In this document: piece after piece, positions 9,001-64,000 of the stretch | Layout of the letters: each line of letters opens with the position of its first letter | Numbering within the stretch: position 1 is the stretch's first letter | Source of the DNA: an uncultured Spirochaetota bacterium | GTDB lineage: Bacteria; Spirochaetota; Brevinematia; Brevinematales; JAOACQ01 | Length of the DNA: 64,000 nt | Assembly (NCBI GenBank): GCA_963783575.1 | Contig: CAWAOD010000016.1 | Coordinates: 160,001 to 224,000, forward strand | Direction: 5' to 3' | The notes under the pieces: generated by a model | What the model saw: only the letters and a program-made list of their open reading frames with translations | Told to the model about the DNA's origin: nothing | Databases searched by the model: none | Translations under genes and position numbers: made by a program

Positions 9001-12000
9001 AATTCTGTTTATTGTCCCAGACCGGATCTTTCGCGATACCGGTTATGCCCACATTTCCCGATATGTTTGTAGAAATGACATTTCCGGAATCGTCATATCC
9101 TTTAGGCGATGTGATCAGTGGTTTGATTCCGCCTTTAACCAGTTCGGCATAACGGGTAGCCCTGTTACCATGAATATCATCAGCTTCGATGATGAAGTCA
9201 TAAGTCCCGCATGGAAGCTCAACGCCGTTCGTTTTTCCATCCCAATTGAAGCTGTTCTCGCTTCCGTCGGCCTGGTTCATGCAGTTGCTGAATACAGCTA
9301 CCGCTTCGTTCGCGTACTTATCCAGAATGGTGATCTTTACATCGACTTTCCCCCGGTTGAGAGGGTAATCGTCATCTTCGGACAATTTATAATAAAGATT
9401 GGCAGTCCCATTGCTGCTCTGCATAATGAAAGGCATTGTATAAGCCTGATATATCACGGGGGCTTTCCGGTCTACTATTAGTGATGTTTCGCGCACCGGT
9501 CCAACATTCCCGGCCAGGTCGGCGGCCGCCATCATTACACGGTACTCGCCGTCTTCTATTCTCTGGAACGGGTCGTAGAAAGACCAGAGATTGGTCTGGG
9601 GAATTCCGAACTTTTCCTTCTCGATTAATGAACCGCTGTAATACCTTCTCCCGTCGTTTTTGTTCTCCAAAGTCATCCGGAAATAGCCTTCGTTGTTTGT
9701 AATCGTGCTGCCGGAATCGTTTAAGGTGAAGGAAACATGGTATAAATCTCCTTTTTCAGCCGTTATGGTTCCATCCAATTCAGATTGTTTAACTTCAAGT
9801 GCGGGAGGAACCGTATCGACAATGAAGTTTTTACTGTAAACGGAGCTGTTGCCGGCCTGGTCTACGGATGTTATGGTCACAGTGTGTACACCCTCGCCGG
9901 GGTTATAATTATTTGAGATATAAACATCAGGGCCTATAGAACAAAGGGTTTTGGCACGGACAACGCTTCCGTCTATTTTCATTTCCATACTGCCGAAGCA
10001 TGGGTATAGGTGTGTCTTTCAGTTTGTAAGCGACCATCAATGTTTGATTATGGTTTACGATGCCGATATTTTCAATATCGGCGATCGGCGGGGTGGTATC
10101 GTTATAAAATCCGGTGACCGTGGTCGATTGATTGCCCATCATATCAATAGTCTCAATCATTACTGCATATTCCCCTTCCGGTATTATATTTTCCTTTTTC
10201 TGAAGAGGGAAGGAAACATTCCAGGATGTCGCATCGTTCTGGCTGATCGTGTAATCCGTCACCGGAGTCCAGTCATCATAGTAACCGCTGACCGTTTCCT
10301 GCATCCATGGGATAGAAAGCCGCTTGAGGTAGATCTTTAAATTATCCCGTTTCAATTCGGCTCCCATATCGGAATTGTAAACACCGACCGCAATTTCAGG
10401 ATTCTGTGTTCTATTGAGATTGACTACGTCAAATATCTTCGGATAAATAGGGTAAGCTTGCATCGGCATCATATCGAGAAAGATTTCAAAAGCATAACTC
10501 CCAATTTCCCCAGCGATTACTTCATTGCCCGACCTGTTTTTATATGCCAGGCAAGTGGTAAAGGCGATGACATTCCTTCCTTCCAGAAGATGCAAGCCCG
10601 ACAGTTTAAATTCACCCTTCGCGCTCAATGGGACTTCTTTATAATCGCTGTAATTGATTGAATACATAAGTTTTCCAAGCTGCGGAATGTTTGCCCGGAC
10701 AATCCCTTCTATTGAGTTGACGAACTCATTCAGCATGACATTTTCAACCGATGTAACCTGGCCGCTCCTTGAATTGAGGAGGGTTTGTATTCCCAATTTT
10801 CCTTCAGTAAACTTATACTGGCTAACCGGATTCCCATTTATCTTGAGGAGTAAAACCGGCGGGGCTTCCCCGCCCAATTTACTTAGGGTCAGGTTTTCAT
10901 TCGTTACGATTTTGTCGAAACTTCCCGTGATACCCCCGCCGCCACTCTGTCCGCCCTGCAGGCCGAATATTTTAGTCATGATCAGTTCGCCGCCTTCACT
11001 CTTCAGATCGGTGTTTTTAAGATAATCCGTCGCGAGTAAAGCGGCTGTTCCCATAATCGCGGCACCGGCAAAGCCGGGTGGGATTGGCACCGATACCGAT
11101 ATGTTTGGTACCGGAAGGATGCAATCCACTAATGTGGAAACCTTGTCCTGGATGATTTGTTTGGTCGCCGCGTTAAGATAGCTGACTCCCCTGTCGTATA
11201 GTCCCTGCACAAAAAGAATCGGGCGTTGTTTGATGTTTTCCAGCATTGAAACAAGACTGCTGCCTGAATAGTTCAGGTTGTTGTAAAGCTTTTCCATCCC
11301 CGAAACCTCGTCCAGAATTGAAGAAACATCCCCCTGCAGAAACGCCAGGTAGGAATCTATAAAATAGGAGAAAGCGTCGAGATGGCCACTGTTAGACAAT
11401 TCGGTCTCATTCGTTAGATCACTGAAAAACCCCCTGATTTCATTATTATCAAAAATGACTGAAATACAGGAAGAGGTATTCTTTATACCGTCCACGGTGC
11501 TGTCAACCTGATCGGCAATTTGTCCGGCCTGATCCATGTAACTTTGAAGTTCATTATAAAGGTTGTTAACGCCGTATTCATTTCCCAGCTGGTAAAAAGC
11601 GGTTTGAATTATTTCACTATAAGCATCTTGCACCATTTGTCCTGCCATACTTGAGAAATTAGGGAATATTTGCCGTATCCAATCCGGTGTATTTCCGCCG
11701 GATAGGGAATTCTCCACAGCACTTTTTATTTTACTACCGTTCAGCCATTCCCTGCCGTCGGATATAAGAGACCTGACGGTAGGACTAATTGATTTGATCT
11801 GACTGCCGATCTCAGAAATCTTATCCCCCATAACCTGAAACTGTCCACCGTAAACATCCGCAAAGGTACTATATCCTCCGGATAGTCCCGGCGTTGTCAG
11901 GATAAGATCCTTCAAACGCTTATATGCCTGGCTCCTCACTTGCTGAGGCGTACTTGAAGTGAACCGGCGGATAACCATCAAGGCATTCTTGACCTCATTC

Positions 12001-15000
12001 AGTTTGGACTCGATTACGGTAATGCCGCTTCCTGTTTTTTTAGTAACGATAGTCCCAATATCATCATCAGCAATTTCAAAGCAGCTGTCCGAAACCGTTT
12101 TAAGCTGATTTTCTATCTTCAGCCAGAGAGGAGTATAAACCATATTGTTCAACGCCTCTTCCGCGTATTCGGAAGCTATTTTTCCAAGCTCTTCATCCAG
12201 GTTGTTAAACACTTTACTGTCTGTTGAGAAGAGTTTGGTACCCGTATAAAGGCCGGCAAAGCCGCCGGCCCCTGCAAATACAACTACGCCGGCCTGGAAC
12301 AAAAACGGCATGTCGGGCCAGAATGCCGAGCTCGTACTTGAAACCTCTACCCCAATGTCTTCCGGGTTAAAGTTCCGGATGGAATTCATTAAAGAACTGT
12401 TGGCGTCCACGCTTAAGGCCGAGTCAGCCCTGCCCAGGAGGATAGAGATATAATTGAACGGATTTATAATATCGTCGTTTCGTACGATTTTTTTTACCGT
12501 ATCTTCTATATCCATTCCTGTAAGGGTTCTTATAATATCATTCGGTTTGATGTTGGTATCGATGCCTATCGGATTAAGATCGATATTGACGGATGAGAGA
12601 AGCCCCAATACCGGTGCGATCGTCAGGTATGCCGCGTAGGATTGCGCAGCCATACTGATAGAGTTGTAACCGTTTGCGGGCACTCCGATCTCGATAATCT
12701 TCGAAATCCTGGGAGCGGCCATCCGCTGCCCTGCGGGAAGGTCCTTTTCGTCCAGAAGCATTTTACGAACCCAGATACCGGCCTTACCCCATGTCGACAA
12801 AACAATCTTCCCTCCGCCAGCGGAATTATAGTAATCGATCACCGCCTTCCGGATCTTATCCACAGCTGCCTTTCCGCTATCACGCTCGTCTTCCGGTGTT
12901 ATGGAAATGCTTTTTGCGTTCACACCCTTTCCTACAAGTACATATTTCACCGGATCAATCTCAACCCCGCCTGCCGAAATACCCGGCGCAACAATCAGGC
13001 ACTTGTCTGAAACACCCAATACGTCGTAAAGAGCCTTCTTTGCGGTTTCCTCGACGATTTTATCGACATTAAAATCAATGCCGTCAACCCAGCTGTTGCC
13101 TGCGTCGTCTGCTGCCTCGACAGTAAAGACGCCTGAAAGTCCCTGAGCGAGTTTGCCTTTTCCCTCCAGGAACTCTTTAAGGTCCCATAGAATGGTGAAT
13201 TTACCGGTATTGGTATCAAAACTCACCGGTATCCCGGATATGGTTTCAACCGTTACATCGCCGAAATTTCCGGTCAAAATCCTGTCCGCATTATGTACGA
13301 CAAATTCCCATTTATTAAGCTCCTCGCCAGTGGACTTGTCCTTCGACGTTACGGAAACATGAATATTCCGGGAAAGATTATCGGAAAGGGTTAACACCAG
13401 CGCGTTTCCCAGCCCCTGCATAATGTCGCTGAAAAGATCGCCTAGACTGAATGTAAATGTGGGCGGGGTGTAGTCAATGGCAAAATCGGGGGATAGAAAA
13501 CAGCCGTCCTGGTTAAGATCGTCTTCCGGGGGATTTACATTATCCGCTAATAAAACCATATCGTTTTTAAACTTTGTTATTCCCCCCGAACTGGCAAGAT
13601 AGGAAAGCCTGTGGAAGGTTACACTATCCGCCATTAATAAAGCCAGTTTATATCTTCCGTTTGGAATTATGTTGTTATTCGCCTGAAGATTTATCGAACC
13701 GCTGTTCCAGCCATATTCTGCTGTATTATTCCTAATTTCTCCTTTAGTTAAAGGATTTCCCCATTTTATTCCATTGCCTGAGCTTACAATTTCTATTCCT
13801 CCGATATTACGTACATTGCCAAGAAAACTTTGAAACGCGTCTTTTCTCCCTTTATCATCTATACTGGATGCATAATCGCTTAAATAAGCATCTCTTTTTA
13901 AATAAAAATCATTAACTTTGTTATTGTCCGGGTTATCCGGTATTAAAAAAGCGAAGGTATTTCCTTTGTCCAATGTTTTGTCGTCATCCGCTTTAAGTTT
14001 GATTGTAATATTTTCCTTACCGATATCACTAAACAGCCTGGCTATGCCGTTGCAGGCGTTATTTATTTTCCTGAAATCCCATTCCCCAAGATTCCCTCTT
14101 TTATCGCTGACTGTATTAAAATAAGTCAAGACAGGCATCTCGTTGTCAAAACATAAGGGCAGGTACATTGGAGTTGAATGCTCGTAGTTAATGAATGCAA
14201 AGCTGCTTTGTGACGCCGAACCTGTATCGATTCCCACTTCAGTCTGAGGATCTGAGTCTACTTCGTTATTAGCCATGTCATGACCGCTCAGAAATATACC
14301 GGTTTTGTTTAAAAGAATATCTGCGCTCATCTCTATATTTTTCGCATCCATCCACATCATGTTTTCCGATTTAATGCTGTTATAAACATCAGCCGGCATG
14401 ATATTCCCAAGAATCAACCCGGTCTGGCTGATATCCGGGAAAGAACTTGGCGCCAGATTGACCAGGAAATTATCCGAGGGATTGACATTCCATCCGGTTA
14501 ATTTTGCCAGCCATTCTTCTGCCTCCGTCAGATTCAGGTTTAAATCCGATTTGCAGAATGTCAGGCTTCCATCCTTCATCCCGGCCGGGGACCGGCTTTT
14601 AAAACCGGCGTATAGCTGCAATGTAATATTACCGTCGCCATCCGCGAGAGACTTTATTTTCTTTCCGTCGGCCACGTTCACAAAAGACGAAATCCATTTT
14701 CCGCCGTTGTTTTTATAGAAATAATAATATGCAAGAATTTCTCCGCTTCCCGACGCAATGATCACCGCCCGGACCGATGCCGGGTAATAGCCCGTGTAGC
14801 GGTAGAAGATGAAAGTTGCATTATCAGAAAAATTCATTTCCTGGCGGAAACCATCCTGCTTACTTAGGTAAGTATGTGTGCCTGAAACCCAGCTTGTATT
14901 GGTCGCGGCAGCATAGAGACTAATGCTGGATAACCCGCTATTATTTCCGACCGGTTGCCAGCCGGTCTGGCTGTTAAACGAAAAAGGCCCATACTCAAAA

Positions 15001-16137
15001 GGATTTGAGTCACCTGATGAAAGAATAGTATCCTGTTTCTGCCCGTTTATTGATAGGTAGACATTATCCCATTTTTGATCCGCTGTCTTTTCCGCCTTCG
15101 TCAATATTCTGGAACCTGAACGAATCCGAAGCTGGAAATCAATGGAACTGCTCGCGCTGTCTATCAGATAATTATTTTGATCCAGCTGCTTCGCATTCGC
15201 CGGTGGTGTCAGGACAAATTGCGGATAGGGGGAATAATTATCAAACCCCTTTCTACTATCATAAACTGTACTGTCATGTTTTGGAAAATAAATTTCACTT
15301 TTATTACTAGCTAATCTAACCATTTCACCCTGTCTTTTGATAGCTGCAGGCGGTACTCTTGTATTGGCATCTAATAATTGCTGTATTTGATTTAATACAT
15401 TATTTTCTCCATAAAAAAATCCCGGAATTAAACCCATCTTGAGCTTCATAAATAATACCATATTTATGTTCTTTATCCTGCCAACCGCCAAATAGCATGT
15501 TATGTGTTGGATAACTGAAAAAATCTCCCCCTTTTAAATCATAAGTATCAACAGGAAGTGATATCTTTTTCAATTCATCTATACTATCCAATATATATTG
15601 TGAATTATCAGGATGTTCATATTTGTAAGCCCTAGTGACAAAACCAGTACATTCAATCCCTGCAATTTGATTAAAGTTCAAACTACCGAAAGTGTCCCAA
15701 TAATATTCCGTTCCCTGGCCGGTCTTACGATCAAATCCACCCGGTACAATTGAATCGTTTTTTATTCTATTTATATACTCATTGGGGCTGTTATAAACAC
15801 CAAAAGCATAAGGCATTATGTTAAACGAGCCTTCGTTTGCATCGCTTTCAAGGTTTTTATTTATTATGATATTGTTATTCGGATCTCTGAAACCCGTATC
15901 ATATTTATATAGGAAAGGTATTTTATCATTTCCCTCATATATTTTATAATAAATCGTCTGGAAATCTTCAGAATCATTATTCGTAATAAAAGTAACCGTA
16001 TCACTGCCAGTTTCCTGCCATGTTGGGATCTGTAAATATGATTCCGCAGTTTGAATTACACTCTGTCTTTCATTTACAACTGAATAACTATAATTAAGAA
16101 TAATAAATGAGGATATAACTAAAATTATTAATTTCAT
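1..16137 (-). CDS. Giant secreted multidomain protein (>5,300 aa, 3' end outside window); two apparent +1 frameshifts (~15415 and ~10003)
   Basis: ORF 15400..16137 has a signal peptide and GIECTGFV..HNML..IYEA. It joins ORF 9927..15491 if one base is removed from the A7 run at ~15413-15419. That ORF joins a third frame if one G is removed at 10002-10004. Spot-checks at ~9840, ~7140, ~5100 and ~600 are all in that frame, and the ORF track lists no stop-terminated ORF in it, so it appears open to position 1. It contains repeated WDG..G..V.DG.Y, SPNGDG and D.AGN motifs. Confidence 0.8.
1500..2135 (-). other. LamG/concanavalin A-like domain within the giant protein
   Basis: Translation YLFNGNANDTSGNGNHG...DRFGNLNSAYDFNG...TYSAWVKP...WYFVVLAYDG...FKGAIDDVRIFNRALSDSEI. 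Confidence 0.85.
4950..5300 (-). other. ZU5-like domain within the giant protein
   Basis: Translation VELVIPASVPDNTLVNVT...PIGPILKMEPSPYQF...PRITVKY. Confidence 0.45.
12640..13010 (-). other. Degenerate alpha/beta-hydrolase (lipase/PGAP1-like) domain within the giant protein
   Basis: CLIVAPGI...KIVLSTWGKAGIWVRKML...KIIEIGVPANG parallels the lipase pattern KVxLVGHSMGGLxxR...LITIGTPxxG, with Gly at the nucleophile-Ser position. Confidence 0.55.
15400..16137 (-). other. N-terminal NlpC/P60-like (papain-fold amidase) domain of the giant protein
   Basis: Signal peptide MKLIILVISSFIILNYSYS; motifs GIECTGFV (cf. GxDCSGFV), LKGGDFF, HNMLF, IYEA. Confidence 0.6.
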
Positions 16138-24309: not shown

Positions 24310-24407
24310 TCCTGTCTGAAAATAATTTTTCCGTAACATTAAAAACTCAACATAATTATGATAAAATTATATTGAACAAAATATACAATCATGATATAAT
24401 TATCAAT

Positions 24408-27400
24408 ATGAAAAATGAATTTATTTTATTATTGATAAATGAATTGGGCTTCAAACTCAAAGATAATTCGATAGAAACTTACTTCAAAACTTACGCCGCC
24501 CATGATAATTATATTATTGAAGTTGATTTCCAGACAAATACAATAAATTACGGCAAACTCATCAATTTAGGGGATAAAACTACATCCAATTTTAAGGCCG
24601 GGGAAAACTTTGTTGTTCTGGAATGTGTCAACCGCTTATTGGAAAAAGGCTACAAACCTCAAAATATAACACTGGAAAAAATCTATCCAACCGGTCATGG
24701 AACCAGCGGAAAGCTTGATATATTAATAACAAATAATGATAAATCCGCATATATTATGATCGAATGCAAGGCCTGGGGACAGGAATATCATAAAGAACTC
24801 AATAAAATTAGAAAAGATGGCGGACAATTATTTACCTATTTTCAGCAGGATAGATATGCCGAATATCTGGTCTTATATACTTCCTGTTTTGACAAAAATG
24901 AAAAGGCTATTCTATATAAAAACAACATCATAAAAATTGAGTCCCATTATCGGGAAGCGGGTAATGTATTCGATCTATTTGATAGATGGAATAAATTGTT
25001 TAAGGATAATGGAATATTTGAAAACTGGGCTTCCGCTTATCAAATAAAAAGCAAAGCGTTAAAACGGAAAGATTTGCAGCCGATAAAAGAAGAAGACAGC
25101 AGCTTTATATTCGGCCGTTTTCTTGAAATCCTGCGTCATAATGTCGTTTCGGACAAACCGAATGCTTTCAATAAAATATTTACTCTTTTTCTCTGCAAAA
25201 TCGTTGATGAAAATAAAAATGATAATGAAGATCTTGAATTTCAATGGCTGGATTCGGATAACCACATTGATTTTCAAAAAAGGCTGACGGATTTATACAA
25301 GCGGGGCATGAAAGAACTGCTGGAAAAAGAAGTGACCGATATCAGCGATCAGGAAGTGGACAATAAATTTATTGGAATAGATGAAGAGAGCAAAAATAAA
25401 ATTAAGGAAATTATTACAAATATCCGGCTGAAAAAAAACAACGAATTTGCGATAAAAGAAGTTTTCGATGACGATTCATTTATCGACAACGCCAAGGTTG
25501 TAAAAGAGGTTGTCGAGCTTCTCCAGCATTATCAGATACGATATAACGAGAAACAGCAGTATCTCGGCGAATTCTTTGAACTGCTTCTGACAACCGGACT
25601 AAAACAGGAAGCCGGGCAATTTTTCACTCCCGTTCCGATAGCACGGTTCATTATAAACAGCATTCCTTTAAAAGAAATAACTATAAATAAATTGAGACAG
25701 GGAAAAGCAAATGATTTATTGCCGTTTCTGATAGATTATGCCTGTGGAAGCGGTCATTTCTTAACCGAAGCAATGGATATCCTTCAAAAAATCATTCACG
25801 AAGCTGAGATCGAAAATTTAAGCCCTAATACCAGAAAATCAATCCAATCCTGGCGTATGGATCAATTTACCTGGGCATATGATTATATATATGGAGTAGA
25901 AAAGGATTACAGGCTAGTAAAAACCGCTAAAGTGAGCTGTTACCTTCATGGGGACGGACTCGCCAAAGTGATTCATGGTGACGGTATCGGGAATTTTAGC
26001 AGCTACAAAGATTATAAAGAAAAATTAATATTAACGGATAAAGATTTTTCGCAGGATAACAAGCAATTTGATATGGTTGTGTCGAATCCGCCTTATTCAG
26101 TCGCCGCATTTAAAAATACACTTGAGAATGCCGATGAAGCTTTTGAAATCTTTAAAAGACTGACGGATCAGAGTTCCGAAATCGAATGCCTATTCATCGA
26201 GCGGACAAAACAGCTCCTGAAAGACGGCGGTTTAGCTGGAATCATACTGCCATCCAGTATCTTAAGCAATACCGGTATTTATGAGGACGCCCGCGAAATA
26301 ATCCTGAAATATTTTAAAATCATAGCAATCGCAGAATTTGGTTCCAATACCTTTATGGCAACCGGAACGAATACAATCACCTTATTTCTGGAAAGAAGAA
26401 ACAATTATGAATGGCTGAATGTCGAATCTGCCGTTAACGGCTTTATAAAAACCGGTGTGGATGCTGCTGTGAATGGGATCGAAAGGCCGTTCGGAAAATA
26501 TGTTTCGTATATCTATGAAGGACTGAATCTTGAAGATTATCTGGAATTATTAAACAAAAAACCGAACAAAAAAATGAAAACCCATGAGATTTACTCTGAT
26601 TATCAAAAAGCCTTCGGAAAACTCAGGGAGAATGACTTTTTTGAAAAAATCATAGAAATAGAAAAAGAGAAATTATTGCATTTTATATTGGCCTATCCAC
26701 AGAAAATAGTGCTGGTTAAAGCCGTTCCGCCGGATTCGGCCGATAAAAACCGTGATGAAAAGGAATTTCTGGGGTATGAGTTCAGCTTCCGGCGCGGAAG
26801 CGAAGGGCATGAAACAATACCGCGATAAAGACGGCAATTTCGCCACCAAGCTCTACGATGAAAAGGATTTAATGAATCCGGAAAAAGCTAATTATTATAT
26901 TTACAACGCTTATCTGGGCAAAAATGATTTGCCTATCCAGGATATCCTCGCTAAACATATTCAAACTGTTGATTTGACCGACCTGATGAACTTCGGGCGT
27001 GTGGAGTTTATCAAGAACATTTCCACAAGGATGTTTAAAAAAAAAGCAAAAATTGAAAGCCGATGGGAGTTGGTAAAATTGGAGGAAGTTACTGAAATTT
27101 TTAACGGAGGAACACCGGATACAAATAATGGAGATTATTGGGATGGAGGAATATGTTGGGCTACTTTGGCAGATACAAAAGAGAAGTATCTTTATCAAAC
27201 TCAAAGAACAATATCAGAACTTGGCTTAAAGAATAGCAATGCTCAATTACTCCCGATTAATACGGTATTATTCTCAAGCCGGGCTACTATTGGAGATGTA
27301 ACAATCGCTAAAGTTGAAACAAGTACAAATCAAGGATATAAGAATTTTGTATGTAATCCTGCCAGAATTTATTATGAATATTTGTATTATATTTTAAAAC

Positions 27401-28119
27401 ATGTGTCTCCCAACATCAAAAATTTAGCTTCCGGGATGACTTATCCTGAAATTTCTAAAGAATTAATATCAAACTTCAAAATTCCCCTGCCGCCCCTGGA
27501 TGTGCAGGAGAAGATTGTGAAAGAGATGGGGGTACTGGAAGGGAATGAAAGGGAATTAAATACCAAGATTTCTTCCGCCAATAACCATATAAGTCAAATA
27601 ATCAAAAAAGTTAAAGATACGAATCAAGAAATCAGAAGATTTGATAGTGTTGCTTCTTTGGAATATGGATCAGGATTGCCGGAAAGGGAGCGAATTTCCG
27701 GTGAATATCCTGTGATGGGATCAAATGGTATAGTAGGTTATCATAATCAATATTTGATAAAATCACCCTCAATAATTGTCGGAAGAAAAGGCTCGGCCGG
27801 AAAAGTAACTTTGGTAGAAAAAAACACATATCCGATAGATACTGCTTATTATTTAAAATATAATGAAACCATGATCCACTATAAATATTTGTATTATGTA
27901 TTGAAGGATATGGAATTATATAAACTATCCGAAGGCATTGGCGTTCCCGGCTTAAACAGGGACAAAGTTCATTCTCAAAGCATTATTTTGCCTCCTCTCG
28001 AAAAGCAGAAAGAAATCGTCGAGGAAATTGAAAAAATCGAGTCTGAATTAAAGATACTGGAAGCCAGGCTGGAACAATTAAATCTTGAAAAAGAAGCTGT
28101 TATTAAAAAGTATTTATAA
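24408..28119 (+). CDS. Single-chain restriction-modification enzyme (HsdR_N-like nuclease + N6-adenine MTase + two HsdS-like TRDs); +1 frameshift at ~26805
   Basis: KLD..IECK nuclease motif, GQFFTP, DYACGSG, NPPY, then S-subunit repeats (GGTP..., IPLPPLDVQEKIV, LPPLEKQKEIV); removing one G from GAAGGGCATG fuses the two ORFs. Confidence 0.85.
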
Positions 28120-48225: not shown

Positions 48226-48336
48226 TATTTGACCTCAAAGCGTAAATTTTTATCTGCCGCTGAGCCGTGGCAATGTGGCTTTTTTACTTTCTTTTTCCAG
48301 TCCGCGGAAAAAGAAAGTAATCAAAGAAAAAGGCGT

Positions 48337-48598
48337 CCCCTCCGCATGAACGCCATTTCATGTAAAGCGATCTTATTGTACTGCGGTGTTGTTATTCAAT
48401 ATATCCTCAAACATCTCTTTTATTAACCGCCTCCTCATCAGTCCGTCCGTGGACTGATTCGTCGGTTTTTGCCCTCCGTGGCAAAACCCTCAAGATTGCT
48501 TAGTCTATGTTAATTATGAATAACAATGTAGATTGTCTCAAGTTCGCGTTTAACCGCAGTGAAGATTAATCAGAAATGGCATTAATGCTGCGGGGGGG
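48337..48598 (+). mobile_element. ~260-bp non-autonomous inverted-repeat element, copy 1
   Basis: Ends GCATGAACGCCATTTC / GAAATGGCATTAATGC; body aligns by eye with the reverse complement of 51502..51762. Confidence 0.7.
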
Positions 48599-48756
48599 GA
48601 TTTATCCTTAACAAGCAAATATCTATTGCTATTAATCACTTTTTTCATTATCAAGACATTTTTTTAAATTTTGATATTGATCAATTAACACAAGGGGTCA
48701 CCAAATATCCTAATCAATTTTAATATCTAAATATATGAAGTCAAGATTAATGTTTC

Positions 48757-49554
48757 CTATTTATGTAATTTTAGTAATATTTGATTGACTGCTTGTCTTA
48801 TTATTCTATGCAAATTCTTTCCCTTTATTATCAAATCTAAAGTGAATTTAACATTATTTTTATTTTCCCATCCATAAAATGGTAATTGAGCAAAATTTGA
48901 ATTTAACATACAAAGTATATGATAAAGATCATGTAATTTATTGAAATCAATATACTTATCCAAATAATCTTCACACAATATCATTTCTATTACAGATCGT
49001 TTTAATATAATTAGTGGAGACACAGCTCTTACATCATTCTGTTCCAGATCTATTTTAATAATATCTAAATAATGCTCATTAAAATCAAGTTCTTTTAATA
49101 AGCTATTTAACTTTCCTTCAACATTTACTAAATTTACTTGTCTTAATTCTTTAATTTTATTTCCATCAAAAAAATGCAGTCTATTTTTATATTGATTAAT
49201 ATTCAAATCGCGTAAAATTATTTCAATTGCCGATTGTTTATACTCCTCAGATATCATAACATAAAAGTAATTAATATAGACATTTTCTTTTGATATAATA
49301 TCTGGAAATGGCATATTGAAAGCTCTTTTGATATGTTCAATAATATCTCCCATATCACCTTGATTTTTACCATTAATATTTTTGAATTTTACTTGAGCAG
49401 CATGATATTGTTTTATTCCAAAACGATTATAATCTGAAAACAGAATATCCTTACCAAATTCGTCTATTCCATGATTATTCCTAACATCGCTAAAACCCAT
49501 ATTTTGAAGTAACGGTATTATTATCTCATTAGTATATTCTTCTTCATCATTCAT
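48757..49554 (-). CDS. Putative PD-(D/E)xK restriction-endonuclease-like protein (Mrr_cat-like N-terminus)
   Basis: PLLQNMGF...EFGKDILF...AAQVK; very AT-rich. Confidence 0.65.
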   Translation of the reverse strand: MNDEEEYTNEIIIPLLQNMGFSDVRNNHGIDEFGKDILFSDYNRFGIKQYHAAQVKFKNINGKNQGDMGDIIEHIKRAFNMPFPDIISKENVYINYFYVMISEEYKQSAIEIILRDLNINQYKNRLHFFDGNKIKELRQVNLVNVEGKLNSLLKELDFNEHYLDIIKIDLEQNDVRAVSPLIILKRSVIEMILCEDYLDKYIDFNKLHDLYHILCMLNSNFAQLPFYGWENKNNVKFTLDLIIKGKNLHRIIRQAVNQILLKLHK

Positions 49555-49627
49555 CTATTCCCTCCATTCTTTCCATCTCCCTCACAATCCTTACTGTCTC
49601 CACGCTTACCGTGCAGGCCCAGCGGAT
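49547..49627 (-). repeat. Type ISP R-M 3'-end remnant, copy A
   Basis: Translates IRWACTVSVETVRIVREMERMEGIDE*; stop overlaps the start of the next gene. Confidence 0.65.
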
Positions 49628-50295
49628 TTATCTTTATTATTCAGAATTCTAAAATACTCTCTAAGACGATAAATTCTTCTGCAAGAATCTCTATTAGCAT
49701 TTATCAAAAATATTATTATAATAAAAATTAAAATTCCAATGGGTAAATATTCCCAGACCATATATAATTCTTTATATAATAAAATTTCAACTGTAAAATA
49801 TACAATTGAAATCATCAAAGCGATGGCTGTATTTCCCGTCGCTTCCATAATAACATCTAACCGCTCCAGCACAAGCCTTTGTGATTCATACCATTCGTTC
49901 ATTGGTATCTTATTTTCTTTTTCCTCAATTTTCTGAAGTTCATAAGTTATTTTTTCAAAACCAAATTGAATCTTATAGTTTTTATCTAATTGATCATTAT
50001 CAAACTCATTTGATTCTATATCCTCAATAATACCTACAATACCTATAATAGGGATACTGCCTAAAATTAATCCTATTCTTTGAATTGCAAATCCTATGAT
50101 CCAGGCAAAACCTATTATAAAAAGCCAGGACATGAAGCTCTGTTTTTCAATAAGGGTTATTAGATAATTTGAATAGTGAAAATGTATGTTATAAAGTGTA
50201 TTAATTAATATAAAACCCGGCAGTATCTTGCTGAGGAAATCCCTTAAAACAAAATGAGTATAAAAATATTTTATTAAGTCGGTAAAATCCTTCAT
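49606..50295 (-). CDS. Hypothetical 4-TM membrane protein
   Basis: ORF with SD GGGAGG and hydrophobic segments; AT-rich. Confidence 0.7.
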   Translation of the reverse strand: MKDFTDLIKYFYTHFVLRDFLSKILPGFILINTLYNIHFHYSNYLITLIEKQSFMSWLFIIGFAWIIGFAIQRIGLILGSIPIIGIVGIIEDIESNEFDNDQLDKNYKIQFGFEKITYELQKIEEKENKIPMNEWYESQRLVLERLDVIMEATGNTAIALMISIVYFTVEILLYKELYMVWEYLPIGILIFIIIIFLINANRDSCRRIYRLREYFRILNNKDKSAGPAR

Positions 50296-50310
50296 AAATA
50301 AAAGCCTCCC

Positions 50311-50447
50311 TTATATTCTTAAAGTTTCCCTTTCCATCTCCCTTATAATCCCCACCGTCTCAACGCTGACAGATCAGATACACCGGATTAAATCAATCGC
50401 CGATTCCTTATAATCCTTAAACCTGCTATACGCCGTCGGGTTCGTAG
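50311..50447 (-). repeat. Type ISP R-M 3'-end remnant, copy B
   Basis: Translates NPTAYSRFKDYKESAIDLIRCI*SVSVETVGIIREMERETLRI*. Confidence 0.65.
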
Positions 50448-50458
50448 TTAATTAACAA

Positions 50459-51001
50459 TTATGCATTTCTATAAATAATTAAACCTATTTTATCATTACC
50501 ATCGAATTTTACAGTTAAGTTATTATTATCATTTATTGGTATACGTTCATATGAATTTATATCAAATAGGCTTATACAAAATTCTGATTGTATTTCGCTT
50601 GATGAAAATGGTAAATCAAAACGTTTTATATTTCTTTTACTTTTTTCTCGTGCATAAGTTGGTAATGCAGTATATTCCTCTATTTTATGAGAGATATCAG
50701 TTAGTTGGCAAGAAACATTACCATTTTCAGGATTTAAATTAAATTTTATTTTAGCAACAGCTTCTGTAGAATTTATATCATAATTAAAACTTGGAGACAT
50801 ATGAGTTCCATTATCTTTTAATCTATTTCCACCATTTATAATTTGATTATTATTGAGATGAAACCATAAATGTTCATGTGTATTACCTCCTACACAATTA
50901 ATAAATACATCATTTGTTCCATCTTCTCTACCACCAGTGCTTAAAGTAACACAGTATTTATTAAACCAATAAATTGCATAACCATTTTGATATTCAGGCA
51001 T
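50459..51001 (-). CDS. Hypothetical protein
   Basis: 180-aa ORF with AGGAGG SD; AT-rich. Confidence 0.7.
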   Translation of the reverse strand: MPEYQNGYAIYWFNKYCVTLSTGGREDGTNDVFINCVGGNTHEHLWFHLNNNQIINGGNRLKDNGTHMSPSFNYDINSTEAVAKIKFNLNPENGNVSCQLTDISHKIEEYTALPTYAREKSKRNIKRFDLPFSSSEIQSEFCISLFDINSYERIPINDNNNLTVKFDGNDKIGLIIYRNA

Positions 51002-51026
51002 ATTAGCCTCCTGTTTAATCTCTTTG

Positions 51027-51134
51027 GGTTAATTCCCCGTTGCTGCGGGGTAGTTTATTTAACCACAGATGGGCACAGATAAACACAGATATTTACTAAT
51101 CTTATCCGTGTGCATCCACGTTCATCTGTGGTTG
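51027..51134. repeat. REP-like palindrome plus CACAGAT-repeat hairpin
   Basis: GGTTAATTCCCCGTTGCTGCGGGGTAGTTTATT; AACCACAGAT-GGGCACAGAT-AAACACAGAT...ATCTGTGGTT. Confidence 0.65.
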
Positions 51135-51140
51135 ATTCTT

Positions 51141-51227
51141 TCACGTTTTCATTTCCTCCATCTCCCTCATAATCTTCACCGTCTCGATACTCACAGTACA
51201 GACCCGCCGGATATAATCAATTACAAA
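51141..51227 (-). repeat. Type ISP R-M 3'-end remnant, copy C
   Basis: Translates FVIDYIRRVCTVSIETVKIMREMEEMKT*. Confidence 0.68.
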
Positions 51228-51376
51228 ATTTAAACAGAGCGATTCTAAATATCAGGCAAGCTTTTAAAGCCGACATTACCTTAGCATAATCAGTGTTGAT
51301 AAATGCATGTCATATGCCGGGAAAATCATAATACTTATGTTTAAACAAATCAAATTATCGAGACGTCAGTCATGCC

Positions 51377-51483
51377 GGTCACTTCGATACGCGTTTAACC
51401 TAATCTTTTAACAAAGCCTCGGTCACTGAGTAGGGCTTCAGCCCGTATCGAAGTGACCATAAACAAGCCGCTACTCAGTGACC
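51377..51483. repeat. Nested REP-like palindromes (TTCGA/CTCAG class)
   Basis: GGTCACTTCGATAC...CTACTCAGTGACC enclosing GGTCACTGAGTAG...GTATCGAAGTGACC. Confidence 0.7.
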
Positions 51484-51501
51484 AAAGCCATCTTAAATGC
51501 T

Positions 51502-51762
51502 CCCCGCAGCATGAACGCCATTTCCGATTGAACCTTTGTGTAGTCATAATAGAACTCGGCTTAATAATTGTTGTTATTCCTGTTAAACCTGATTTAAACA
51601 AGTTAAAGGGTTCGGACAGGGATGTCCGAAACCGAGGAATCAGTATAAGGATGTACTGATGACGAGGCGGTAATAAAAAGATATCTTTAATAAAAATACT
51701 TGAATAACAACACCTCAGAATAAACAGATTTCTTAACATGAAATGGTGTTAATGCGTAGGGG
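51502..51762 (-). mobile_element. ~260-bp non-autonomous inverted-repeat element, copy 2 (inverted relative to copy 1)
   Basis: Reverse complement begins CCCCTACGCATTAACACCATTTCATGT...GGTGTTGTTATTCAA...TTATTACCGCCTCGTCATCAGT, as in copy 1. Confidence 0.7.
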
Positions 51763-51783
51763 TCGTTCCTTTCTCTTCGACAG

Positions 51784-53474
51784 CAGACTGTGTGAAAACT
51801 CAGTAAAATTTTATAGTAAAATCGATTAATTATACAAAAACTCCATTTTTTGATATATTTTTCAAGCTAAAAAAATCTTAGTTTAAAAAATCTATCCGAA
51901 TACGATAAACGATGGTTTATTAGCATCAAACCAGAGTCATAAGTCTCTTTATTCCCAATATATTCAATACTTTTATTAAATTATGAATGAATCCTGCCAA
52001 ACTGGATTCCGTCAGAACGCCATCCTTTCCCTTCATTAAAAAATAACTGTAACCCATATTCCTTTTTATCGATCCAAATGGATGTTCACATATCTCTTTC
52101 CTTTTCTCTATGATCTTTTTCCCGGCTTCAGAACGAATTTTCCTCTTGAAGTTCTCAATTTCTTCTTTTCTAACTGGTACTTTGATACTTCGTCCTTCCA
52201 CGCTTTCAGTACACTTATTTCTTACTTCACATTGGCTGCATAAGCCGCACTTGTACCTGACTATCTCTTTTCCTCCATTGACCTTCTCTACTTTTTTCCC
52301 ATTTCTCACTAATGGGTTTCCCTCCGGACAATAATAAACATTTTGTCCCGGATCATATTTGAATTTATCAACCTGGTATTCTTCAGCAGGTACTCCTTTA
52401 TTATCTTCTTTGCCTCGAATCCTTGCCTTATGTCCGTCATCCGGATTCGGCATATATACGTTATGTCCCTTATCTATACATTCCAGTATCTGCGGTTCGC
52501 TGTAATAACCGGCATCCGATACTTTGACCGTTTCAGTCTCTACCTTAAGCTCGTCCTTTATTTCTTCTACTCGGTCACACATTCCTGCCATCTGTTTGAT
52601 ATCATTGTTTTCATTCGTCACATCAATCGCCACAATCAGTTTATTCGCATCATCTACTGCCATCTGCAGATTATATGCAATGTCGGATTTCCCTTTATCA
52701 TTCATAAACCGGCTTTCCGGGTCATTTGAATAATATTTCTCCATTTCAGGATTTCCCTCAAAAATCTTTTTAATAGCCTCAACTTTATCCTTTTTTGTTT
52801 TCATTTTCTTTAAACGTTCCGCTATCTTTCCGGAAAGAAATTCAAATTCATTCTTTTCTTCCTTATCGTTCTTATCCATCTCATTCAAATATTCTTCGAT
52901 CTTTTGATCTATTCTATGTATGATTTCTTCTATGTTTTTCCTATGATAAACATTGTTATTGTGGTTTTGCGCACTGATCTTGGTTCCATCAATTCCAACA
53001 ACGTCAAATGATAAAAGCCCGGCTTTATGACATATCTTCAAAAATTCTCTGAATATCGACTGTATTCCCTTCTTATTATCTTTCCTGAAGTCGGCAATCG
53101 TCTTGAAATCCGGCGCTAGTCGTCCAGTCAGCCACATCAACTCTGTGTTTCTTCGGCACTCTCTCTCTAATTTCCTGCTTGTCCTGATTTTATTCAAATA
53201 TCCGTAAATATAGATTTTTAAAAGTATTTCGGATTTATATGAACTTCTGCCGGTTGATGCTTCTTTTACTTTAAAACCAACTCCTTTCATATTTAGCTTA
53301 TCAACAAAAATATCTATAAACCTTACCGGATCTTCTTCTCCTAACAGATCTTCCAGTGTTTCATTGAACAGAACTATCTGATCCCTTGATTCTCCCTCAA
53401 TATGCTTCATCTTTTACTCCGATTATTTTTGTTCTAATAATTATAGCATATTTACTGTGTTTTCACACAGTCTG
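51784..53474 (-). mobile_element. IS1182-family insertion sequence
   Basis: Terminal IRs CAGACTGTGTGAAAAC / GTTTTCACACAGTCTG enclosing the transposase. Confidence 0.9.
51926..53410 (-). CDS. IS1182-family DDE transposase
   Basis: YIYGY...SRKLE...PDFKTIADFRK, IDGTKI, DAGY, EHPFGSIK. Confidence 0.93.
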   Translation of the reverse strand: MKHIEGESRDQIVLFNETLEDLLGEEDPVRFIDIFVDKLNMKGVGFKVKEASTGRSSYKSEILLKIYIYGYLNKIRTSRKLERECRRNTELMWLTGRLAPDFKTIADFRKDNKKGIQSIFREFLKICHKAGLLSFDVVGIDGTKISAQNHNNNVYHRKNIEEIIHRIDQKIEEYLNEMDKNDKEEKNEFEFLSGKIAERLKKMKTKKDKVEAIKKIFEGNPEMEKYYSNDPESRFMNDKGKSDIAYNLQMAVDDANKLIVAIDVTNENNDIKQMAGMCDRVEEIKDELKVETETVKVSDAGYYSEPQILECIDKGHNVYMPNPDDGHKARIRGKEDNKGVPAEEYQVDKFKYDPGQNVYYCPEGNPLVRNGKKVEKVNGGKEIVRYKCGLCSQCEVRNKCTESVEGRSIKVPVRKEEIENFKRKIRSEAGKKIIEKRKEICEHPFGSIKRNMGYSYFLMKGKDGVLTESSLAGFIHNLIKVLNILGIKRLMTLV

Positions 53475-58138: not shown

Positions 58139-59149
58139 ATGGACGCAAAAAAGTGGATCGGAATTGATATCCACAAAAAGCAAATTACCGTTTGCATTAT
58201 TATAGAAAACGGTAAAAAATCAATCAAGCAATATGAGAGAAATGAAAAAGAATTAGCGGAATTTGAGAAAGAGATTGACAAAGAAACGATAATCGGGATT
58301 GAATCGACAAACTGGACATGGGATTTAATCAAACGGTTAAAAGATAAAGCAAAGGATGCGGTTATTTTCAATACTATTGATTTAAAAAGATTAATGGATC
58401 GATTTAAAAAAACAAACAAGGAAGATGCAGAAAGAATGGCGATTATATTACAAAGATTTGAAAAAGAAGAGCTAAGTACCTGTCAGATAAGAAGCGACGA
58501 AGACGCTGAAATAAGAGGATTATTATCTGTGAGGGAAGAAATGGTTAGCAATAAGAAAAGCTATAAGACAAAGATAATAGCGATGATGGAGTATTGGGGG
58601 ATTAAAACCGGAGACAAAATGTTCAACAATTTTGAAAAGAACACAAACTGGGTCAAAGAACAAAACATACCTGAGAGTATAAAGAGAGCCGTAATCCAGA
58701 TGTATGTTATGTTAGAAAATCTCAAAGAAGACATTAAGGTACTGGATAAAGAAACAGAAGCCTTAAGCATAAAGAGACCCGGATATAATGAGATTAAAGA
58801 ATTAACGGGAATAGGCACAACAACCGGCGCATACATCATAACGAAGGTAGGCAATATAGACCGCTTTAGTACCTCAAAAAAATTTGTATCATATATGGGA
58901 TTAGCACCAAGAGTTAGTGAAAGTGACGGAAAAGGAACAAATGGTCAAATTACACGAAAAGTAGACGGTGCTTTTTTAAGGGTCATAGTACAAGCAGCCT
59001 GGGTTCGTGTGAGATATGATAAAGAAATGAAATCGTTTTATGAGAATATTCGAACAAGAAGAGGAAAACAAAAAGCGATCATTGCAGTAGCGAGAAAAAT
59101 TATTGTGGAAGTATATTATAAGTTGTTGAATCTGAAATCTGAGGCTTGA
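58139..59149 (+). CDS. IS110-family recombinase/transposase
   Basis: IGIDIHK, IES, KTNKEDA, GIG, RF..K.VSYMGLAP...S, KAIIAVARK. Confidence 0.92.
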   Translation: MDAKKWIGIDIHKKQITVCIIIENGKKSIKQYERNEKELAEFEKEIDKETIIGIESTNWTWDLIKRLKDKAKDAVIFNTIDLKRLMDRFKKTNKEDAERMAIILQRFEKEELSTCQIRSDEDAEIRGLLSVREEMVSNKKSYKTKIIAMMEYWGIKTGDKMFNNFEKNTNWVKEQNIPESIKRAVIQMYVMLENLKEDIKVLDKETEALSIKRPGYNEIKELTGIGTTTGAYIITKVGNIDRFSTSKKFVSYMGLAPRVSESDGKGTNGQITRKVDGAFLRVIVQAAWVRVRYDKEMKSFYENIRTRRGKQKAIIAVARKIIVEVYYKLLNLKSEA

Positions 59150-60569: not shown

Positions 60570-61640
60570 ATGTATTACGGAGTTGATTTGCATTCGGATA
60601 ATCTGAAGGTTGCGATTCTTGGGGATAATGAAACTGAACCGAGGATATTCAGATCGAGCCTTGAACCAAAGTATTTTGAAAAGTTTTTAAACCGGTTAAC
60701 AAAAGATGATTACATCGCAGTAGAAGCATCAACAAACACATTCTGGTTTTATGACCAGGTTAAACCTCTTATCGCAGAATGTTATGTAATCAATCCCGGT
60801 AAATTCCAATTGGTTTCAAACTCAATGGTCAAGACAGATAAGAGGGACGCTATCAGTATTGTAAGAATGCTTAAATATAGTGTAATTACCGGAGAACCTT
60901 TACATACCATTTATATACCTAATTTGGAAGTAAGGGAAATCCGCGGGCTATTTACAACATATAAGCTTTTTAAGACGGATATTGTCAGAATGAAAAACAG
61001 GATTCATTCATTATTAAAGCAGAACGGTTACAAACAGGAACGGGAAAGCCTGAATGTTAAAGGTACAAAAGAACAAATTCTTCAGCTTGATTTAAGCGAA
61101 ACTGTAAAATTTGAGATAAATCTATTGTACAAGCAGATGGAAGAAATGATTAACAGTGCTAATGAAATAAAGAAAGAGATCTTGGTAAAAGGCAAGATAT
61201 TCAAAGAGGAAATAAAATTACTAATGAGTATAAAAGGCATTAGTCCATTTACCGCGATAGGAATAATGTCGGATGTGGCTGATATTAACCGTTTTAACAG
61301 TGTAAAAGACTTTTGTTCTTATCTGAGATCGGCTCCAAAAGTGGATTCCTCGAATAAAATGACGAAAATCGGAAAGCTTAATAAGAAGTCAAGACGTTTA
61401 ACGATGGAGTTATTAATCCAGAGCATTCAACACTTTCGGGATTGTAAGAAATTTAATTATTTTTATGAAAAGAAAAGTAAAGGTAAGTCAAAAGGCAAAG
61501 TCAGGGTTGCATTAGCAAGAAAAGTCATGGTAGCTATTTATCATATGCTTAAAAAGAAAGAGTTGTTTTACTACATTGATAAGAAGTGTTATGAAAGCAA
61601 AATGTGTGAGTACAATAATTTCTTAAAAAAAGCCGCTTAA
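60570..61640 (+). CDS. IS110-family recombinase/transposase
   Basis: YGVDLH, VEA, KTDKRDA, GIS, RF...SY...P...SS, VALARK. Confidence 0.92.
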   Translation: MYYGVDLHSDNLKVAILGDNETEPRIFRSSLEPKYFEKFLNRLTKDDYIAVEASTNTFWFYDQVKPLIAECYVINPGKFQLVSNSMVKTDKRDAISIVRMLKYSVITGEPLHTIYIPNLEVREIRGLFTTYKLFKTDIVRMKNRIHSLLKQNGYKQERESLNVKGTKEQILQLDLSETVKFEINLLYKQMEEMINSANEIKKEILVKGKIFKEEIKLLMSIKGISPFTAIGIMSDVADINRFNSVKDFCSYLRSAPKVDSSNKMTKIGKLNKKSRRLTMELLIQSIQHFRDCKKFNYFYEKKSKGKSKGKVRVALARKVMVAIYHMLKKKELFYYIDKKCYESKMCEYNNFLKKAA

Positions 61641-63214: not shown

Positions 63215-64000
63215 TCATGAAATCTTTTCTTCAACTTTTATTGGAATACCAATTCTTGCTCTAATTTCTTCATAAATTGGAAGGTCAATGTTAAAAAGGC
63301 TATTAACTTTTTCTACTGCTTCTAATGTTACAGCTAGACCATAATAAACATCTTCATCTAATGTTTTTGCGTCTTCTCTGCATACAACTGAAATCTTCAT
63401 AAATTTACCATCATGATAAGATACTACTTTTGAACCCTCAAAAACTTCATGTTGAACGGTGCCATTTTTTACCTGTTGCCAATCCGCATTTATTCTTTCA
63501 ACCCCTATGTCATCCATAGGTGGTTCAATTGATAAATTAGCTTTTCTATACTTTCTATTTGCAGGATTAATAGGGCTAAACCATGCTAACGTAATAATCA
63601 ATCGTTTTATTTCATTTATACCACTTAAACATGGGGGCAAAGGAAACTGAAAGTCATTCTTTTCATCTTTTTTTATTTTCCCAAAACCTATTGCGGTTGC
63701 TCTCTGTGAAGCACATTCAAGAACGCGTTGAATGTTTGGTATGCCAAAACCCATATATCGTGCAAAATTTCTCTTAAATTGTTTTTTATTTTGATTTGTA
63801 CTGAATATTTTTTTTAGAATGCTATAACCTTCACCCCATGATGCACTATGAACCAATAAGGCTTTTAAAATAACAGCGACATTGCTTTCATCAATTGAAA
63901 TATTATTTTCTAATATTAATGGGCTTAGCATTTCATAAATTTGAGATGCAGTCCGTGTAGCAAGCGCCGCGGAATTACTTGTTCCTCTGATATAAAAGCA
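63215..64000 (-). CDS. S8 (subtilisin-like) peptidase, C-terminal part; 5' end outside window
   Basis: Frame stays open to 64000: RGTSNSAA (catalytic Ser), KALLVHSA, YMGFGIP, ITLAWFSP, GTVQHE. Confidence 0.8.
   Translation of the reverse strand, partial: CFYIRGTSNSAALATRTASQIYEMLSPLILENNISIDESNVAVILKALLVHSASWGEGYSILKKIFSTNQNKKQFKRNFARYMGFGIPNIQRVLECASQRATAIGFGKIKKDEKNDFQFPLPPCLSGINEIKRLIITLAWFSPINPANRKYRKANLSIEPPMDDIGVERINADWQQVKNGTVQHEVFEGSKVVSYHDGKFMKISVVCREDAKTLDEDVYYGLAVTLEAVEKVNSLFNIDLPIYEEIRARIGIPIKVEEKIS

Follow-up and report, generated by a model that had tools for sequence, protein, structure and literature searches.

Orphan 3′ ends of DrdV-like restriction-modification genes alternate with unrelated genes in a Spirochaetota genome and at other bacterial loci, and probably record displaced alleles

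The window analysed here is a stretch of 64,000 nucleotides from the genome of an uncultured Spirochaetota bacterium of the Brevinematales (GenBank assembly GCA_963783575.1, contig CAWAOD010000016.1, positions 160,001 to 224,000). On its minus strand lies a compact array in which three short direct repeats, hereafter tails, alternate with three unrelated open reading frames (ORFs), hereafter cargo, in the order tail C, ORF C, tail B, ORF B, tail A, ORF A. By sequence comparison, the repeats are confirmed to correspond to the last 25–40 residues of restriction-modification (R-M) enzymes of ~1000 aa that are predicted to lack a helicase. The tail–cargo–tail array is a real layout that recurs at other loci. 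The three repeats are probably leftover 3′ ends of different alleles of such a gene, with the array having been built by serial displacement. The parts of the array, and an insertion sequence (IS) next to it, are as follows.

51141..51230, minus strand: tail C, the first tail of the array; orphan 3′ end of a predicted DrdV-like Type IIL/IIG R-M gene, ~29 codons, open, with its own stop
51035..51133, no strand assigned: palindromic repeat elements between tail C and ORF C, with 31-nt arms at 51061-51091 and 51103-51133 and a hairpin at 51035-51050
50459..51001, minus strand: ORF C, 180 aa, 26% GC, an orphan predicted to be mostly beta
50326..50445 (approximate), minus strand: tail B, orphan 3′ end of ~40 codons with one in-frame TGA
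49606..50295, minus strand: ORF B, 229 aa, 27% GC, with four hydrophobic segments
49547..49633, minus strand: tail A, orphan 3′ end of ~27 codons, open
48757..49554, minus strand: ORF A, 265 aa, 24% GC, the last cargo, with no tail behind it
51784..53474, minus strand: multicopy IS with DUF772 and a DDE transposase and 24-nt terminal inverted repeats, outside the array

An initial annotation, made from the letters alone, had described three diverged direct repeats alternating with three unrelated AT-rich ORFs, each repeat encoding the same C-terminal peptide, and this description holds. The top family of the repeat finder (D1) consists of 65-nt direct repeats at 49572-49636, 50333-50397 and 51157-51221, 68–78% identical and spaced by 761 and 824 nt; the GC content of the three ORFs is 24–28%, versus 41–51% in the tails. 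The peptides read as given at the time, with the small correction that the one of copy C extends to ...MREMEEMKT followed by the stop. The longest identical runs between the tail copies measure 11–14 bases, and neither blastn nor tblastn found a fourth copy in the 4.9-Mb genome. A genome-wide dispersed repeat is ruled out as an identity of the tails, the copies being confined to one locus. Tails and cargo are closely interlocked. Tail B starts about 14–43 nt after ORF C ends. The stop of the 229-aa ORF B lies within tail A, as had been noticed before: its final codons and stop (49608-49606) are provided by the tail, read in another frame. Tail A is preceded by TAA and has no start codon, and its purine-rich end overlaps the start of ORF A (ATG at 49554) by 8 nt. 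It is these last codons that overlap the ATG and not, as first reported, the stop of the tail (49549-49547), which falls just beyond. Each cargo start in the array has a purine-rich leader. No same-strand terminator-like site was found within the array, and the search for structured RNA returned a single chance-level Rfam match (14.5 bits, cut-off 50). The palindromic elements between tail C and ORF C have short matches in one related genome and elsewhere in the host genome.

A tblastn search with tail B matched five plasmid records, in three of which the match lies inside a gene annotated as 'type ISP', at the gene end. The C-terminus of one of these plasmid proteins retrieved 2826 relatives, and the last 75 residues of 120 of them were made into a profile that includes no window sequence. 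With this independent profile, the three window copies rank first in the genome, at 27.7, 32.5 and 15.2 bits, whereas the best score in a shuffled control (100 pieces of 16 kb) was 9.3 bits, with 0 matches at 12 bits or more. Moreover, copy B is matched by a single protein of the family, P0060 (E 4.9e-4), and residues 999-1033 of the 1035 in this protein match copy C.

Members of the parent family are ~1000 aa long; most of the 120 listed proteins carry PF18135, PF02384, PF07669 or PF22240, and helicase Pfam domains are absent from these 120. One member aligns with PDB 7lo5_A (E 9e-303) out to residue 1024 of 1029, whereas the alignment with the Type ISP enzyme LlaGI begins only at residue 549, and the family matches the PADLOC model REase_MTase_IIG over 1024 positions. 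Because of this near end-to-end match and the REase_MTase_IIG hit, we assign the family, as judged from its sequences, to DrdV-like Type IIL/IIG enzymes (nuclease, methyltransferase and target-recognition domain, no helicase), which NCBI labels 'type ISP', and not to true Type ISP. We take PDB 7LO5 to be DrdV; the 1029-aa length and the F304 of the DrdV preprint agree with the chain. The window tails correspond to the last residues of the C-terminal target-recognition region of DrdV (PDB 7LO5/7LVV) but, unlike DrdV, keep 25–40 codons only and encode no enzyme. Type ISP LlaGI and LlaBIII (PDB 5FFJ, 4XQK) have a methyltransferase and target-recognition domain homologous to those of the parent family, which lacks their helicase/ATPase. 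The portion of the DrdV preprint available to us describes a 1029-aa Type IIL enzyme whose methyltransferase and target-recognition domain are close to those of Type ISP (bioRxiv 10.1101/2021.01.06.425610), and downstream copies of the tail are not mentioned in that portion.

The earlier proposal that the tails are Type ISP C-termini is thus half right. They are 3′ tails of R-M genes, according to the profile and P0060, whereas the parent is DrdV-like, and a profile of seven canonical-ISP-type tails has 0 matches in the host genome. PF18135, which had been suggested as a check, does not match at the window repeats because the profile ends before the tail, about 20 residues short of the C-terminus (seen at loci L047 and L316; L, G and C numbers denote loci, genomes and contigs of our collection). 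The statement that neither an intact parent gene nor an integrase is present withstood the wider search: no live parent gene for the window tails is left in the host genome, and PF00589 has no match on the window contig, C16. The one other ISP-like gene of the genome (C11, ~377.8-380.8 kb) was rejected as the parent, having a different tail type and no significant DNA match. This gene (G000:C11:377821-381490, equal to L002:5822-9491) is a helicase-less ISP-like R-M gene, split by a frameshift as assembled, and a DUF2971/PDC-S31 candidate defence gene stands directly after it.

Similar arrays are found well beyond this genome. A 36-nt degenerate pattern fitting the three window copies retrieved at least 122 stretches each from genome and metagenome contigs, ~80 per scan with flanks, and 155 loci were scanned after removal of four duplicates and of loci of 700 nt or less. 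Two or more tails occur at 15 of the 155 loci, a set in which multi-tail loci are over-sampled; the 15 are distributed over Bacteroidota, Chloroflexota and Thiotrichales, with some on unnamed contigs. The most clear-cut array is L055, from Chitinophagales, where an intact 998-aa gene is followed by five orphan tails (remnants), with one or two ORFs between each. Units that are not gene-sized or not co-oriented also occur, namely multi-gene units in L098 and L106 and reversed cargo in L126. For a count with less bias, we considered intact genes whose own tail fits the pattern, with 3 kb downstream: orphan tails, up to five of them, lie behind 7 of 64 intact family genes. The phenomenon is specific to the 3′ end. 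With blastn, and with three further duplicate loci dropped, 8 of 53 R-M genes have their last 150 nt repeated farther downstream in the same orientation; in one of these, L104, the repeat lies at the stop. Among control ORFs taken from these loci the number is 3 of 257, including an R-M fragment (p=5e-5). The first 150 nt were found again for 0 of 53.

In each of five array genomes (5/5), the tail matches, 15 in all, fall at one locus per genome. No tyrosine integrase (PF00589) or resolvase (PF00239) was found on C16 or on the array contigs of four other genomes; large serine recombinases were not searched separately. The initial annotation would have been refuted by peptides unlike Type ISP C-termini or by copies scattered over the genome without a consistent place ahead of variable cargo. 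Neither was the case: the peptides match R-M C-termini, and the tails stay at one locus with no dispersed copies. Closer to the host, the window locus is absent from the 40 related genomes searched, and no tandem tails of the window type were found in 400 other genomes of the phylum. Tandem ISP-type tails occur in one of the 29 genomes with ISP-type tails, G290, giving a related layout with canonical-ISP-type ends. There, L316:140-6202 (G290:C33) holds two ISP-type (PF18135) C-terminal fragments, one followed by DarT and macro-domain genes and the other by an AAA and S8 protease pair, downstream of a 1227-aa helicase-methyltransferase with zinc-finger repeats. In viral contigs, the only stretch with the tail pattern is an intact gene.

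The tails differ from each other in the manner of coding sequences. In 21 comparisons of a remnant with the first tail of its locus, differences at codon positions 1/2/3 number 38/28/157, i.e. 157 of 223 are at third positions. Variable columns of the window tails are distributed 6/2/11 (p=0.024), and differences among the five L055 remnants 9/6/26. Therefore, the tails diverged while coding and are ends of different working alleles, not decayed duplicates. Homology mostly stops near the conserved gene end. Among 169 tails, 66 are part of full genes, 44 run into a contig edge, 41 have 100 codons or fewer, 13 are intermediate and 5 are too short to score; several of the 13 intermediate tails are full genes whose variable region broke the match. 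Remnants have a median length of ~111 nt (range 59–423), their 5′ boundaries all differ and most contain no internal stop. In arrays with a live gene they are 74–100% identical to it. For the junctions, 40 of 54 short tails were used; the 14 set aside comprise the three copies of the window, six pieces that are long or ambiguous, an internal deletion, a tail with no cargo and three weak hits. Of these 40 remnants, 21 have their start in the interval -60..+20 nt around a same-strand stop, versus 8% (any position) or 17% (non-coding) by chance; starts of intact genes fall in this interval in 6 of 57 cases. The 21 are not independent, five of them coming from L055.

Arrays of this type probably arise by serial displacement, in the following way. 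An incoming allele, accompanied by its own passenger, would recombine by homology on the upstream side, while its far end would join illegitimately within the last ~20–100 codons of the resident allele, either at once or by insertion followed by deletion of the old gene body. The tail of the resident, together with its passenger, would be pushed downstream and retained, the travelling unit being a tail plus the gene that follows it. The passengers of the window would then range from ORF A, the oldest, to ORF C, the youngest, and the locus would later have lost its live R-M gene. Selection may favour tight junctions and short tails, which would leave the downstream genes within a single read-through transcript, in which the purine-rich end of a tail could act as a ribosome-binding site. 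The same displacement model has been proposed for the immunity arrays of type VI secretion systems (T6SS), as described in the accessible part of that paper (PMC5361080). The window array is a fossil case, its parent gene having been lost and its tails having diverged too far for easy recombination among themselves.

Comparable loci give some view of such steps. What follows the last remnant of L126 is the same flanking sequence (93%) that follows the single tail of L254, and the last remnant of L054 and the single gene of L301 likewise share their downstream flank. In both cases, the ancestral flank sits behind the last remnant. Among relatives of L100, a full gene, a full gene and remnant, or a remnant and different cargo can occupy one slot, which lies upstream of a Mg-chelatase-family gene and in several cases has a DUF3597 gene on its other side. 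In both L074 and L100 the gene is followed by the same 120-aa cargo, and a remnant comes next only in L100. At its cargo–remnant join, ATTGA is common to the cargo stop and the tail, a 5-nt microhomology from a single pair whose genes are ~77% identical; L074 is not the true donor. As a separate observation, the R-M or tail slot of the Chloroflexota-type loci L300, L301, L304, L310, L311 and L054 lies directly upstream of a Mg-chelatase-family AAA gene. We presume this neighbour to be YifB/ComM, the natural-transformation helicase.

Several observations weigh against serial displacement. No displacement event was seen directly, the comparison being one without close strain pairs that differ by a unit, and microhomology could be inspected in the distant L074/L100 pair only. 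At least 4 of 53 short tails, as well as L310 and L311, are internal deletions that retain head and tail and need no incoming allele. The tail of L210 stands directly behind the gene without any cargo. Over 50 nt, the remnant of L100 matches the resident gene at 100% identity, as would also be expected from a target duplication. Finally, 19 of the 40 remnants have no tight junction.

In the initial annotation, the conserved tail was a recombination handle that serially captures cargo. In a more explicit form, once a cargo–tail junction exists, the tail would be a reusable downstream homology arm: a gene–cargo–tail fragment, or a circle looped out between tails, would recombine with a resident tail and add one unit, in an integron-like manner without att sites, and this could act on top of displacement. 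What survives of that proposal is the recurrence of one-locus arrays without a tyrosine integrase or resolvase. The shortness of the remnants and their restriction to the conserved C-terminal part agree with a handle, as do the five gene-sized units in a row in L055, the confinement of arrays to one locus and an identity to the live gene that is mostly sufficient for recombination. However, when the 54 short tails were compared with all scanned loci, no identical cargo–tail junction was found in two genomes, and no two 5′ boundaries agree; the window copies, moreover, have only short identical runs and no live partner gene. Reuse of tails is a plausible but tentative addition. Scars of displaced alleles are the better reading of the tails, and some tails result from plain internal deletion. 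Such deletion is the essence of an explanation by erosion only, in which entire units of R-M gene and cargo entered, either in tandem or in unrelated events, and the gene bodies were deleted while the tail was kept for the ribosome-binding site and spacing of the next gene. It explains the solitary head–tail cases (L239, L198, L093, L185, L310, L311) and the promoter-plus-tail arrangement in L202. In L310, the promoter of the deleted gene and the tail are fused ahead of the Mg-chelatase-family gene, the tail stop abutting the next ATG, and a short stretch before remnant 1 of L106 resembles an internal piece of the gene, going by a motif. By contrast, the remnants in arrays have no head fragment ahead of them (49 of 53 short tails are without one), remnants of intermediate length are few, and tails of 60–250 nt go far beyond what a ribosome-binding site needs, all of which makes erosion unlikely as a general account.

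Insertion that makes a long duplication of its target, of the type of Furuta and Kobayashi, would bring cargo to the 3′ end of a resident gene and duplicate 50–250 bp of that same gene. The geometry agrees, and remnants nearly identical to the resident gene are found in L106 (97–98%) and L240 (97%), in addition to L100. In the accessible part of the source, the mechanism is described for R-M loci, with direct repeats of >30 bp flanking inserted genes and no mobile-element enzyme (Furuta, Abe and Kobayashi 2010, PMC2853133). In the same text, however, R-M genes are the insert and not the target, and the flanking repeats are near-identical, whereas here the end of the R-M gene is itself the repeat and its copies are diverged alleles. 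Neutral decay of a duplicate would also spread differences evenly, whereas 70% of them are at third positions, with the same excess among remnants. This mechanism fits the near-identical cases only; it is disfavoured for most tails and seems quite improbable as the general one. Hardly any credence goes to a role of the tails as small translated peptides, whether regulators or alternative C-termini for the enzyme. Most remnants are free of stops and a few have an upstream ATG or an in-frame fusion to cargo (L098, L106), but an in-frame TGA interrupts window copy B, copy A has a TAA before it and no start codon, length varies freely, and the tail is the conserved and not the variable part of the protein.

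The cargo of tail arrays is mixed and not limited to defence, contrary to what had been expected. L055 carries NmrA, ODP and two SnoaL/DUF4440 genes. In a sample of 35 ORFs chosen from 58 listed in other arrays, AbiL, PD-T4-4, DUF4062, AlbA, HEPN, PIN, Gp49-HTH, DUF433/5615, Uma2 and HIRAN were found along with non-defence NmrA, ODP and SnoaL, and 17 of the 35 have no Pfam match. In the window, none of the three ORFs has a significant PADLOC match, and no homologs of the cargo were found in viral contigs. ORF A is predicted, from its homologs and modelled fold, to be an Mrr-like PD-(D/E)XK nuclease. It has 1030 homologs, and 15 of 40 aligned ones match Mrr_cat. Two distant matches within the phylum and a plasmid homolog annotated as a restriction endonuclease were also found. 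Its structure model (pLDDT 95.5) combines an N-terminal PD-(D/E)XK domain (residues ~1-144) with a C-terminal four-helix bundle, which is a common fold. The closest structures are 1y88 (Z 11.4, root-mean-square deviation 2.5, 111 aligned residues) and FokI and BspD6I (Z 9.2–9.4); Foldseek gave no match at E 0.001 or better, with MspJI and Cap4 weak. ORF B has no Pfam, PADLOC or plasmid match; look-alike Atlas clusters at 0.94 are unnamed. ORF C has no homolog, no Pfam match above cut-off and an uninformative, low-confidence model (pLDDT 53, best Z 6.1). A lectin/CdtC-like identity of ORF C was rejected, the Atlas matches (0.82 only) being below the useful range.

The IS at 51784-53474 lies upstream of tail C, near the expected position of the parent gene, and its inverted repeats have 66 matches genome-wide (about 30 copies), reflecting a recent expansion of this DUF772-DDE element in the genome. 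Multicopy non-coding repeat families at 48325-48600 and 51300-51774 flank the array in opposite orientation, with about 20–40 matches each. A composite transposon was considered and rejected: both the inverted arms (48325-48399/51700-51774) and the ~190-nt elements in inverted orientation on either side of the array belong to repeats present in many copies across the genome. Two DNA sequencing runs, with small shares, hold short pieces identical to the window, one across the ORF B/tail A junction; these may stem from the source sample, and we do not use them as support; no RNA sequencing runs carrying window sequence were listed. Elsewhere in the window, a Type I-like R-M locus (24372-28119) consists of a fused R-N-terminus/methyltransferase gene (818 aa) and an S subunit with two target-recognition domains. 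An 1854-aa ORF at 9927-15491, with further long minus-strand frames upstream and YARHG and other small genes adjoining, is possibly part of a large secreted-protein locus. Two more transposase-like ORFs (58139-59149 and 60570-61640) are presumably IS110-like. At 63215-63931 (also L004:1216-4975) lies an AAA ATPase and S8-type protease pair, the protease apparently split, which we take to be IteAS-like; a similar pair is the cargo behind one ISP-type tail in G290.

Integron arrays and the present arrays have in common low-GC units of gene size and one orientation with a repeat between them, the most recent unit probably being closest to the promoter, and accessory content of mixed kinds. Such gene-sized, co-oriented units are seen in the window and in L055, and the tight junctions are a further likeness. 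Unlike in integrons, there is no integron integrase, and the repeats are coding sequence of variable length, not listed among inverted repeats, with no fixed crossover point or attC palindrome. A nearer parallel is provided by T6SS effector-immunity arrays of Vibrio cholerae and by orphan modules of Rhs and contact-dependent inhibition loci, in which, as far as the accessible text goes, each new module is added at the front, likely through illegitimate recombination facilitated by homology, and the 3′ end of the old gene with its downstream partner is shifted back without an integrase; the authors themselves note the resemblance to integrons (Kirchberger et al. 2017, PMC5361080). In the present arrays, an R-M gene is the anchor and its conserved C-terminal end is what remains, and the passengers are unrelated genes (nucleases, toxin-antitoxin pairs, Abi systems, metabolic genes) and not cognate immunity genes. 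The class of mechanism is thus already known. We found no description of R-M tail arrays, in which it would use the conserved end of an R-M gene with unrelated passengers across phyla, in the literature searched, including the part of a 2025 review accessible to us (PMC12707154); this coverage is incomplete and does not imply that they are unpublished.

These arrays bear on the question of how defence islands start and grow at integrase-free loci, since tail scars record the steps in order. About one in nine intact family genes carries such scars. It is conceivable, if rather doubtful, that the conserved 3′ end of DrdV-like (and ISP-type) R-M genes serves as a recombinase-free cassette platform, where tails, reused as homology arms, would let gene-sized cargo without promoters be gained, looped out and rearranged behind the R-M promoter in many phyla, and where an R-M gene would nucleate and grow a defence or accessory island. 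A 50-residue tail profile finds the junctions directly, which makes the mechanism testable in strain collections. The slots behind tails also offer a guide to function by position, since known AbiL, PD-T4-4, DarT-macro and toxin-antitoxin genes occupy them beside unnamed genes such as ORFs B and C.

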